DNA of 64,000 nt from a virus (Duplodnaviria; Caudoviricetes): IMG/VR virus record IMGVR_UViG_3300010355_000588, one strand, 5' to 3'. Position 1 is the stretch's first letter. Each line of letters opens with the position of its first letter. The translations under genes and the position numbers were made by a program. A model generated the notes under the pieces. That model was not told the DNA's origin and made no database searches. It saw nothing but the letters and a program-made list of their open reading frames with translations. This document shows, in pieces, positions 2,450 to 55,919 of this stretch.

Positions 2450-3511
2450 TTATTTGAAGAGCGAATCGACGTCAAAATCGTCGATAGTGGTGTCGGCAGC
2501 AGTCGGCTCTTCTGCTTGCTTTGATGGTGTCTTTGCTTCCTTCTTGGATTCTTTCTTAGATTCCTTCTTGGGTTCTTCTTTAGCGGGCATCATGTCTTCA
2601 TTCGTATCGTCGACGATCGGAGATTCTTCCGGAGCTGCTTCTTCCATTAGACGCTTCTGAATGTCTGCGGCCATCTTGTCTTCAGGAGTAGTTGGAAGAT
2701 CTGGTTCGCCACATTCCATGGAGATACAGCTTTCTACGAATTCATTGAGTTCTTCAGCACTGGATTCGGTATAGAAGTCCTTGTCGAAGTTGAGTTCGTT
2801 GACAGCCTTCTGTACTTCATCTTGGGTGAGAGGAATCTTCGTAGCCTGGCGGGCGAAACTGGTAGAATATTTGTTGTATTCGTCGTTTTGTTGGGTAGTG
2901 GAAATGATGAGATCGAATCCCTTTTCCAACTTGAACGCGTCTACGCCAATGACATCCACATCTTCATCCTTCTTGTCGCCCTTCTTCTTGTCCATGACAA
3001 TGCCATAGATATACTTCTTCAGATCACTTGCGACTGACCATCCAAACTTGAGAATCTTGACAGTTCCTTCGTTGGTTGGAGTGGTCGGATCCTTAATGAC
3101 GTAGACAAGTGCATATCCTTCCATCTGACGTTTGAAGCTTTCATAAAGTTCTTTTGAAGTCTTCGAACCAGTCTTTTCGAAGTCCTTGTAATAGGCAGAG
3201 GTCTTCTTGCAGATGGGGCAACGGCTGAAACCGGCCTTGTCGAGAAGATATTCCGAAGTCGGGCAGACCACGGAGAATCGCTTGCGAGCTGCTTCGTCGA
3301 AGTGCTTGTGGACATAACGAAGGAAGAACGGAACGCGGCGCTTGGAGCCATCTTGGATTGCGAACAGGAGACGGAACTTGTAGGTAGCATTGCCTTTTTT
3401 GAAGCGAACGATGCGTTGGTCTCCGAACATAGCTGCCGTATCAGCGCGCTTTTCTACGAGTTCGGTTTCTTTCTGGAGGCTTTCTTCGAAGAGTTTGTTG
3501 AGATCTAGCAT
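2450..3511 (-). CDS. Single-stranded DNA-binding protein (T4 gp32-like)
   Basis: H...CPT...CPIC zinc site, VYVIKDP...NEGTVKI, acidic tail DDFDVDSLFK. Confidence 0.88.
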   Translation of the reverse strand: MLDLNKLFEESLQKETELVEKRADTAAMFGDQRIVRFKKGNATYKFRLLFAIQDGSKRRVPFFLRYVHKHFDEAARKRFSVVCPTSEYLLDKAGFSRCPICKKTSAYYKDFEKTGSKTSKELYESFKRQMEGYALVYVIKDPTTPTNEGTVKILKFGWSVASDLKKYIYGIVMDKKKGDKKDEDVDVIGVDAFKLEKGFDLIISTTQQNDEYNKYSTSFARQATKIPLTQDEVQKAVNELNFDKDFYTESSAEELNEFVESCISMECGEPDLPTTPEDKMAADIQKRLMEEAAPEESPIVDDTNEDMMPAKEEPKKESKKESKKEAKTPSKQAEEPTAADTTIDDFDVDSLFK

Positions 3512-19320: not shown

Positions 19321-19885
19321 TCAGATCGAAAATAAATCGAAATTTTTCTGCTTCAGATACTCCTTACGCTTGTCTGCCTTGGAACTCGAAAGCCAGTCAT
19401 CGACAATCTGGACGTCAGTAGCTTCGTCGAAGTCTATCTTGACTACGAATTTGTCCATGCCGACCTTCTTTACCAGATCGCGTAACTCCTCAGTCTTCCA
19501 GGTGCCAAGACCCTTGTAGTAATGTTGTTTATATTTAGATACATCGTTCTTGGCGACGAAGGCCTGGTAGTCTGGAAGATTCATGAAATGGTGGACGATC
19601 TTTCCTTTAGAATCTTTCAGCGTGACAATCGGGGTCTGAAGCTTGTAGATGTTGTTCTTCAGGATTTCTTTGAAGTGCTTGTAAAAAAGACCGATGTAAA
19701 GACCAGTGATATGTGAACCAGTTACTCCCCAACTAACCATCACCATCAGCATCTGTAGCGATGATGATTTTGTCAAAGTTGCTGGTTCTATCTACCTGGT
19801 TGCAGTTCATGGTTCTTCTTACATTAGTCTGTTGTTGGTAGGCGTTCATATCTACCTTAGACTTGTTGATCTTTTTGAACTTCAT
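19321..19885 (-). CDS. Topoisomerase II gp60-like subunit interrupted by a 19-nt coding gap (join 19885-19736 + 19716-19321, about 181 aa)
   Basis: 5' part MKFKK...IATDADGDG then TAG; 3' part GSHITGL...YYKGLGT in +1 frame; joining restores DADxDGSHI. Confidence 0.85.
19717..19738 (-). promoter_or_regulatory. Candidate translational bypass element
   Basis: GGT TAG TTGGGGAGTAACT GGT. Confidence 0.7.
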
Positions 19886-21435
19886 GGAGTATCTCCCTTT
19901 ATTAGATTTTTCACGCCAATCCAAGACCCATTTATCTCAATTTCGTCCTCTAATCGGGCTACTATTTTCTCTCCGTCTACTTCAAATTCGTACCATTCTT
20001 CAGGTTCTGCCTTCCCAATCTGTAATCCACAGATCTGGAATATCTCCTGCATTTCTTTGTTGTCAATGATGCGCTTCTCGGTAGATTCATAGGCGTTCAA
20101 CGGGACACCTCTAGAGCCATAGTAGGCGAAGTGCTTCCGACCAAAGGCTGCCGATAGACCACCCATGGCAGACATCCCTTCGCAGATGAAGAAAGCCTCA
20201 GGGGTGTCAGTAGCTGCCAAATATGCGTCGGACTTGATCTTCATCTTCTTGAGCTTCTTGTTGAATTCTTCGAGCTCCTTGTTCTTCTTATATTCTTCTC
20301 GCAGCTTGAAGATCTCCACGACCGGATCCATCAACTTCTCGTTCTTGTAGATCTTGTCGTTGAGCTTCTCGAAGTCCAGACCAGCCAGAAACGCTCTAAT
20401 CTCTCCGGTTGAGTTGGTTAGACGCTCCTTGGTTTGGCTGTCGAACTTCGGGTTTGGAAATCCCCTAAACACACAGACAATCTTCAACCGGTTGTAGATG
20501 TCAGCTGGCACGATGGTCTTATATTTCTTGATTAGTTTGTTGCGGATCTTATAGGAAATCTCGTTGCAGATAAGATCCATGTGGTTGCCACCATTCTTCA
20601 TGTGCAGTCCGTTGACATATGAAATGGTCGTGTAGCTATCGGTGTCAGATGGATATACCCCGAGCAAGAAATTGTCAGCTTCTACATATTCGAAGTCTTT
20701 TCCATAATATTCCAGATAAGACTTACCTGATCTAACATCGATACGCTTGGTATTGAAGTAGAACTTGATCTGAGGAAAGGAGACAGCCAACTGGATAAGC
20801 CGTTGTTCAATGACATTCTGATGGTTGGCATCGATCTCATTCAATCCAAAACGTTCAAGGTCAGGCGTGAATTGAACAATAGTGAACGAATTCTTGTGGG
20901 TGGCCTTCTTGATCTTGTACGACATCTTCTTGAGATTATCAGTACACTTAAGAATAAGCTTTTCCTTGCCAGAATATGTCTCAACGGAGAATTCCTTAGA
21001 CCAGACGTTGGTGCAAAAAGCTCCGACGCCAAAGGATCCAATTGACTTTCTTTCTTCAACAAAGTTAGAACCGGCTTTCGCGTGGGTGAACGCCAGGACG
21101 GCCTTTGGCAGCTTTGTCCCCCTGTCGATGTCCACGGGAACCCCTCTTCCATTGTCTTCCACCTTGACAGAAGTCTTATCGATTGTCACGTAGATTCTAT
21201 TGGCCTTAGCGAAGTCTGTCTTAATTGCTTCGTCTACGCTGTTGTCGATGACTTCATTGATGATTTTGGCAAGCCCTGGGACATATGTATATTTCTTGTA
21301 TTCGAAGAGGTTGGACTCACGGTTCAAGAGAAAGCCTTCAGCCTCTACGTAGTTAATGGACCCGATGTACATGTCTGGCTTGGTAAGGACATGCTCCTCG
21401 TCGGTCAGCTTTCTAATTTCATTATTAGCTGCCAT
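19882..21435 (-). CDS. Type II topoisomerase ATPase subunit (gp39; GyrB/ParE-like, ends mid-Toprim)
   Basis: PDMYIGS, EVIDNSVDE, DNGRG, QTKE, EGMSA, RGVPLN. Confidence 0.93.
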   Translation of the reverse strand: MAANNEIRKLTDEEHVLTKPDMYIGSINYVEAEGFLLNRESNLFEYKKYTYVPGLAKIINEVIDNSVDEAIKTDFAKANRIYVTIDKTSVKVEDNGRGVPVDIDRGTKLPKAVLAFTHAKAGSNFVEERKSIGSFGVGAFCTNVWSKEFSVETYSGKEKLILKCTDNLKKMSYKIKKATHKNSFTIVQFTPDLERFGLNEIDANHQNVIEQRLIQLAVSFPQIKFYFNTKRIDVRSGKSYLEYYGKDFEYVEADNFLLGVYPSDTDSYTTISYVNGLHMKNGGNHMDLICNEISYKIRNKLIKKYKTIVPADIYNRLKIVCVFRGFPNPKFDSQTKERLTNSTGEIRAFLAGLDFEKLNDKIYKNEKLMDPVVEIFKLREEYKKNKELEEFNKKLKKMKIKSDAYLAATDTPEAFFICEGMSAMGGLSAAFGRKHFAYYGSRGVPLNAYESTEKRIIDNKEMQEIFQICGLQIGKAEPEEWYEFEVDGEKIVARLEDEIEINGSWIGVKNLIKGDTP

Positions 21436-55845: not shown

Positions 55846-55919
55846 TGGAGCGTCTAGCCCGATTCGAACGGGCACCCACTCCATGGCAAGGAGTGATACT
55901 ACCATTATACTATAGACGC
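55846..55919 (-). tRNA. tRNA-Gly(GCC)
   Basis: GCGTCTA/TAGACGC, ACTCC-TTGCCAT-GGAGT, GTTCGAA, TCCA. Confidence 0.92.

Follow-up and report, generated by a model that had tools for sequence, protein, structure and literature searches.

Can a topoisomerase gene that is broken by a stop codon in the middle of its Toprim motif still yield one continuous protein? This question is raised by a locus in a 64,000-nucleotide stretch of phage DNA (hereafter the window), taken from IMG/VR record IMGVR_UViG_3300010355_000588, the source record being a complete virus of 164,165 bp with terminal repeats. Programmed bypassing is among the most extreme departures from linear decoding. The 50-nt bypass in T4 gene 60 has been established experimentally and, to our knowledge, programmed bypassing rested for decades on this single case. 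Natural variants of such a system reveal which of its signals are dispensable. An initial sequence-only reading of the window had proposed that 19 nt are skipped here in a similar manner, and we assessed this proposal against homologous loci, RNA signals and rival explanations.

Layout of the interrupted gene

The locus lies on the minus strand, and its features are collected in Table 1. ORF1 (517 aa) gives Pfam matches to HATPase_c and DNA_gyraseB, and its TGA overlaps the ATG of ORF2 (19885-19883) in the tetranucleotide ATGA, so that no homing endonuclease gene lies between the two ORFs. The first segment of ORF2 ends with GAT GGT GAT GGT, in the DADGDG of the Toprim motif, directly before a TAG, the stop codon least used in this genome (it ends 16 of 133 long ORFs). 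Behind the landing GGT, the +1 frame starts with TCA CAT ATC (Ser-His-Ile), remains open for 131 codons up to the TGA at 19323-19321, and matches Pfam TOPRIM_C with an E value of 1.5e-14. When the 19-nt gap is removed, the two segments join as DADGDG-SHI into a protein of 181 aa (50 + 131 codons). The anatomy described in the sequence-only reading, i.e. the ATG at 19885, the AGGGAG, the 50 codons, the TAG, the GGT at 19719-19717 and the SHI in the +1 frame, is present in full on this strand, and its estimate of about 181 aa for the restored protein agrees with our count.

Table 1. Features of the interrupted topoisomerase locus and of related genes in the window (gap counted by T4 convention, i.e. 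from the stop through the landing codon)
Feature	Coordinates	Strand	Basis
ORF1, gp39-like topoisomerase II large subunit, N-terminal part	19882..21435	-	ORF, Pfam, alignment with L094
ORF1 C-terminal extension (CTE), about 34 residues, element-derived, outside the parental topoisomerase	19885..19986	-	alignment
ORF2 ribosome-binding site AGGGAG	19893..19898	-	anti-SD duplex -8.4 kcal/mol, top 1% of random positions
ORF2 first segment, 50 codons: NTE (nascent-peptide signal) + HomR, ending DADGDG	19736..19885	-	tblastn, alignment
Take-off codon GGT (Gly50)	19736..19738	-	sequence, cassette comparison
TAG stop, adjoins take-off	19733..19735	-	sequence
Coding gap, 19 nt, +1 frame change	19717..19735	-	T4 convention; identical in L009, L010, L011
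SD-like GGGGAG, 5 nt after take-off, 5 nt before landing	19725..19730	-	anti-SD duplex
Landing codon GGT	19717..19719	-	sequence, cassette comparison
ORF2 second segment SHITGLY..., 131 codons + TGA, TOPRIM_C	19321..19716	-	Pfam; L094 alignment
tRNA-Gly(GCC) of the phage, decodes GGU/GGC	55846..55919	-	tRNA content of the 164-kb genome
gp52-like topoisomerase II subunit, intact partner, open frame 455 aa	12344..13606	-	PF00521 match; = C1:50395-51657

The phage encodes only four tRNAs, namely Gly(GCC), Thr-TGT, Met-CAT and Arg-TCT. As the first of them decodes the GGU found at both take-off and landing, we infer a link between this tRNA and the hop; with four tRNAs, however, their agreement could be a coincidence.

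Relationship to T4 gene 60 and the MobA elements

At the nucleotide level the region is isolated: blastn against GenBank phages gave no DNA match. The identity of the C-terminal part to GenBank phage topoisomerases does not exceed about 36%, and this protein, used as a single query against viral contigs, returned no loci, so that an alignment-based query was needed. The 50-aa peptide, compared with 5.8 billion proteins, matched itself alone, probably because such short ORFs are rarely called. In a tblastn search of 50,697 records, the same peptide matched only phage groups which have gene-60-type bypass cassettes, with a best E value of 5e-6. Its identity was 52% with Shewanella phage Thanatos-1, 51% with Acinetobacter phages KARL-1 and fHyAci03, and 46% with T4 (E value 5e-5) and its relatives; further matches were found in Proteus, Salmonella S16 and Aeromonas phages. 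The T4 gp60 peptide, which the sequence-only reading had given as a close match, agrees with the T4 record. In an alignment of 17 NTE peptides the window sequence keeps Y16, Q19, V22, R23, R24, an aromatic residue at position 33 and T40 (T4 numbering); the residues highlighted in the Manning and Atkins preprint (bioRxiv 10.1101/2022.08.31.505936) are kept. [quoted passage not shown]

The tail of ORF1 tells a similar story, as the CTE aligns with the tails of T4 gp39, Thanatos-1, Aeromonas phage 50AhydR13PP (hereafter R13) and two other loci (L002 and L008). In a comparison of ORF1 with an uninterrupted relative (L094, 49% identity), the parental homology reaches as far as ORF1 residue 483. The end of the first ORF2 segment then corresponds to L094 residues up to 509 (the G of DADADG, whose DG occupies 508-509), and the second segment to residues 510-640. 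As the two segments abut at L094 509/510 with nothing missing or extra, skipping the 19 nt restores exact colinearity. The 131-codon segment keeps all conserved positions, at 40-50% identity to its relatives.

The MobA element family has been described by Manning and Atkins as a combination of CTE, NTE and cassette, with an endonuclease between the ORFs, and also in "clean excision" forms (10.1101/2022.08.31.505936). Its insertion point is the Gly46 or Asp45 codon (T4 numbering) in the Toprim DxDxDG of the topoisomerase II large subunit, and the cassette signals are matched Gly or Asp codons, a stop or hungry codon, a take-off stem-loop and a mini-SD 5-7 nt 5' of the landing codon (10.1101/2022.08.31.505936). 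In the window we found the insertion after the G of DADGDG, the matched GGT/GGT, the TAG, the mini-SD, the NTE and the CTE, whereas the take-off hairpin and the homing endonuclease between the ORFs are missing. Because the published family includes "clean excision" forms, the absence of the endonuclease does not exclude membership. The insertion site, the homology of NTE and CTE, the matched codons, the stop, the SD-like motif and the colinearity all support the bypass put forward in the sequence-only reading, and we consider it likely, judging from the sequence comparisons, that the cassette is a short member of the T4 gene 60/MobA-element family of programmed translational bypass which has lost its endonuclease.

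The novelty which that reading implied does not hold. The same phage is listed as MGS13 (clade 12) in Table S2 and File S2 of the preprint, under IMGVR_UViG_3300009780_000002 / 3300025871_000001 from anaerobic-digester sludge, and the entry contains the same ORF1, the same ORF2 DNA with the insert and the joined protein DADGDG-SHI (10.1101/2022.08.31.505936). Its authors, who also remarked on the ORF1/ORF2 overlap without an endonuclease, independently reached the same junction for the same phage (10.1101/2022.08.31.505936). The case is thus real and rare, but it is already catalogued and so not new. It needs to be mentioned that the main text of the preprint describes MGS13 as using GAU, and calls the nascent-peptide insertion puzzling (10.1101/2022.08.31.505936). 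The former statement conflicts with the preprint's own Table S2, with the joined protein and with the DNA, all of which give GGU/GGU. Similarly, a short Aeromonas form (clade 6) is described there as "just 20 nt" (10.1101/2022.08.31.505936), while by T4 convention the R13 gap amounts to 17 nt, not 20. The MGS13 cassette was not found, by name or by string, in the preprint's bypass-region alignment, and its 19-nt length, its missing hairpin and the tRNA-Gly(GCC) are not discussed there; none of the later papers searched treats short-gap variants. Separately, a soil metagenome run from 2019 (X2) contains two 151-nt pieces with 95-99% identity to window positions 19563-19711 and 19837-19987, both ending short of the gap, and on this sequence similarity a near relative of the sludge phage may be present in soil.

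Variation of gaps and RNA signals among homologues

We gathered 160 homologous loci from viral and metagenomic contigs, 130 of which remained after removal of redundancy. The motif D-x-D-x-D-G-x-x-[IVLM] is unbroken in 118 of these; in three, an intein precedes the bypass site by two residues, and nine are interrupted by stops. With the unbroken motif in 118/130 homologues, exact restoration is what function requires. From the surveyed loci, from loci obtained via protein matches and from published phages we extracted 18 cassettes, and in every one of them a single tRNA reads both the take-off and the landing codon, with a stop right after take-off. The codon pairs are GGT/GGT, GGA/GGA, GGT/GGC, GGG/GGA, GAC/GAC, GAT/GAT and GAT/GAC, the gaps measure 4, 4, 17, 19, 37, 41, 42, 42, 43, 45, 47, 48, 48, 49, 50, 51, 52 and 59 nt, with all three frame relations represented, and in most cassettes an SD-like motif precedes the landing codon by 5-7 nt. 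Homologues with conserved matched codons and variable gaps, which the sequence-only reading had named as a way to check its proposal, do therefore exist over a range of 4-59 nt.

The two shortest gaps deserve a description of their own. At L004:590-625 (a contig shared with L146) and L005:70-105, a gp60-like NTE ORF ends in GAT-TGA and resumes at GGA (GAT TGA C GGA), which leaves a 4-nt gap. As read from the DNA, this arrangement would be compatible with a ribosome that hops 4 nt across the stop, from GAU to GAC, or with one that shifts by +1 and adds one Asp. The two proteins are only 51% identical (about 64% for the DNA) and yet the 17-nt block at the site is identical, which speaks for conservation of the interruption and against an error. 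The string of this 4-nt gap is absent from the supplements of the Manning and Atkins preprint. L005 shares its ENA sample (ERZ940688) with L006, a locus that has a 59-nt gap and a hairpin, and the C-terminal parts of the two are 74% identical despite the differing gaps; thus gap length changes quickly. At L008:3900-3960 the hexamer ATTGAC is present at take-off and again at landing, and a deletion between the two copies would leave the exact 4-nt form.

Other irregularities were noted at the same motif. An unsplit full-length Topo2L relative (L106:2195-2250, 47% identity) has an extra C between the Asp and Gly codons of DxDxD/G (GAC C GGT), which turns the reading into D-R-stop; seen on a single contig, the extra base could result from faulty assembly or be a scar left by repair at the site that the endonuclease targets. 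Inteins (...HN/C-D-G-x-H-I) are located two residues upstream of the bypass site in the Toprim motif at L007:1052-1220 and, around 3440-3500, in L014, L022 and L099. In L007, an ORF of 352 aa comes first and the C-terminal part of the intein starts an ORF of its own behind it, which suggests that the intein is split or interrupted by an endonuclease. Selfish elements of several kinds have their hot spot in the Toprim motif. Among interrupted relatives, P0002 (50% identity; Logan SRR24752792 and SRR24752793) comes closest to the window's C-terminal part, and its ORF calls overlap at the same motif (...TTDG-HIAGLY, shorter by one residue), which suggests another short interruption.

As to the RNA signals, the GGGGAG which the sequence-only reading had placed 5 nt before the second GGT is indeed there. 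With an anti-SD duplex of -8.0 kcal/mol (top 1.25% of random positions) it is as strong as a real ribosome-binding site, and it is followed by no start codon. The G.U-rich stem over the stop, proposed in the same reading, can be predicted but is no better than what dinucleotide shuffles yield: the take-off hairpin reaches -3.5 kcal/mol in the cassette alone (z -0.62; 51 of 200 shuffles as good) and -8.9 kcal/mol with flanks (z -1.72). Neither a T4-like 5' stem-loop (z -0.99) nor a downstream slippage barrier (z -0.03) was significant against shuffles. In a hairpin scan across the 18 cassettes, most gaps of at least 37 nt gave z values from -3.6 to -6.1, with the exception of L171 (49 nt, z -0.6), while neither the window (z -1.6) nor R13 (z -0.4) was strong. 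The lack of a significant take-off stem-loop, a signal of importance in T4, speaks against bypass in the window, as do the 4-5 extra residues of the NTE. Since the hairpin is also missing in the published clade 6, the bypass family tolerates its absence.

The window cassette shares with T4 gene 60 the site of interruption, which in both follows the G of the Toprim DxDxDG, Gly take-off and landing, the UAG, an SD-like motif 5-6 nt before landing, and the homologous nascent peptide and gp39 tail. It differs from it in gap length (19 vs 50 nt), codon (GGU vs GGA), frame (+1 vs +2), hairpin (z -0.6 to -1.7 vs -3.6) and SD-like motif (GGGGAG vs GAG), in the extra residues of its nascent peptide, and in having no mobA remnant between ORF1 and ORF2. 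R13, a member of clade 6, is similar in its 17-nt gap, in a G-run SD-like motif which begins 1-2 nt after the stop with a 5-6 nt spacer (6 nt in R13 itself), and in the lack of a significant hairpin (z -0.4 and -1.4). However, R13 uses Asp GAC/GAC at the preceding codon instead of Gly GGU/GGU, belongs to a different host lineage and keeps its MobA endonuclease, and its NTE is 37% identical to that of the window. Thanatos-1, the best NTE match, has the only other GGU/GGU among the 18 cassettes and likewise a UAG after take-off; unlike the window, it has a 52-nt gap and a very strong take-off hairpin (-19.5 kcal/mol, z -6.1), and its ORF1 and ORF2 are separated by another ORF. E. coli stop-hopping and RF2-type +1 shifting, as described by Weiss et al. 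(1987) and in related papers cited in the preprint, resemble the window in that a peptidyl-tRNA leaves a stop-adjacent codon and re-pairs nearby with no large RNA structure needed. Such hops, most of them artificial or of low efficiency, span at most about 6-9 nt, whereas the window has a 19-nt gap in a homologous programmed cassette.

Putative mechanism, rival explanations and meaning

By analogy with the T4 experiments, take-off, sliding and landing may be pictured for the window cassette as follows. The ribosome would translate the 50-codon NTE and be primed by the conserved nascent-peptide motif in its exit tunnel. With the GGU of Gly50 in the P site and a poorly decoded UAG in the A site, the peptidyl-tRNA-Gly(GCC) would release the mRNA, which would then slide by 19 nt. 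Pairing of GGGGAG with the 16S anti-SD would bring the second GGU into the P site for the tRNA to re-pair with. Decoding would restart at UCA and give a single gp60-like protein of 181 aa whose Toprim motif (DADGDG-SHI) is intact and which is expected to work together with the gp39-like ORF1 product and the gp52-like subunit.

Several other explanations of the interruption have to be weighed. An intron was rejected, as 19 nt is far too short, and so was transcriptional slippage, as there is no homopolymer run; TAG readthrough, which the sequence-only reading had dismissed as unable to restore the frame, does lead into the wrong frame, as confirmed from the translation. That the insert is an artefact of assembly or sequencing seems hardly credible: the insert is known at the contig level, but it is identical in ENA, JGI (one SNP elsewhere in 2301 nt) and Logan assemblies, including a Logan contig that spans it without difference. 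Four assemblies from different pipelines thus agree at the contig level, and a 19-nt non-repetitive insertion is untypical as an error. A programmed +1 frameshift at GGU-UAG is very improbable as well. The frame is open through the gap, which would be translated as S-W-G-V-T-G, so that the product would be 187 aa long and its Toprim loop six residues longer, and a stop codon in the A site is a classic stimulator of +1 shifting (the RF2 paradigm). However, re-pairing of tRNA-Gly(GCC) on GUU would not be cognate, an SD-like motif is found only downstream of the shift site, while that of RF2 stands about 3 nt upstream, and an insertion between DG and xHI occurs in none of the 118 unbroken homologues.

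One could also imagine a three-piece enzyme, in which translation terminates at the TAG and reinitiates in the +1 frame at the ATG at 19752, 19746 or 19740, so that the 50-aa peptide and a C-terminal fragment of 139-143 aa assemble non-covalently. These landing-frame ATGs lie 2-14 nt upstream of the TAG and are used by gene callers (139, 141 and 143 aa), stop/start overlaps are a common coupling device, and a split of the phage topoisomerase already exists between ORF1 and ORF2. On the other hand, the ATGs are automatic by-products of GAT-G codons and none has a ribosome-binding site, with anti-SD duplexes of +1.9, +0.4 and -1.2 kcal/mol against a gene median of -5.6. The fragment would begin with 10-14 gap-encoded or out-of-frame residues, the metal-binding DxDxDG loop would be parted from the helix that follows it, and the matched GGT and the SD-like motif before a non-start codon would be left unexplained. 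Moreover, relatives with Asp take-off codons (L002, L006, L008, L080 and others) lack such ATGs and keep the matched codons. Reinitiation after termination may, however, do without an SD; on balance, we regard a three-piece enzyme as unlikely. Slightly less probable still is a recent inactivation, where the 19 nt would be the decayed remnant of a longer cassette, no full-length protein would be made and the phage would rely on host gyrase. T4 topoisomerase mutants (DNA-delay) are viable and the enzyme is not strictly essential, so a recently broken gene could persist; the missing take-off hairpin and the lost endonuclease would agree with decay, and the recovered copies are near-identical, hence selection on the cassette is not demonstrable from them. 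Against inactivation speak the 131 codons that are open in the landing frame with conserved positions kept, the retention of stop and matched codon along with a correctly spaced SD from the top 1%, the intact ORF1 and gp52-like partner subunits, and the hairpin-poor 17-nt form kept across a clade of Aeromonas phages.

At present, the value of the bypass cassette lies in its use as an experimental substrate and in the correction of the preprint's description (GGU, 19 nt). It also calls for caution in annotation, as every gene caller split this topoisomerase gene into pieces. Because its gap is not half as long as that of T4, its SD is much stronger and a credible hairpin is lacking, the window cassette offers a natural test of whether take-off needs a hairpin in the A site. 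Tentatively, and with distinctly less conviction than for family membership, we suggest that the 17-19 nt forms and the 4-nt forms (GAU-UGA-C; L004 and L005) may make up a functional series in which the hairpin was lost and the cassette shrank to a minimal stop-hop, with full-length topoisomerase still being made. If this series is true, a nascent peptide, a stop and a matched codon (together with an SD for the 17-19 nt forms) would suffice for efficient bypass, and a phage-encoded cognate tRNA would possibly help.
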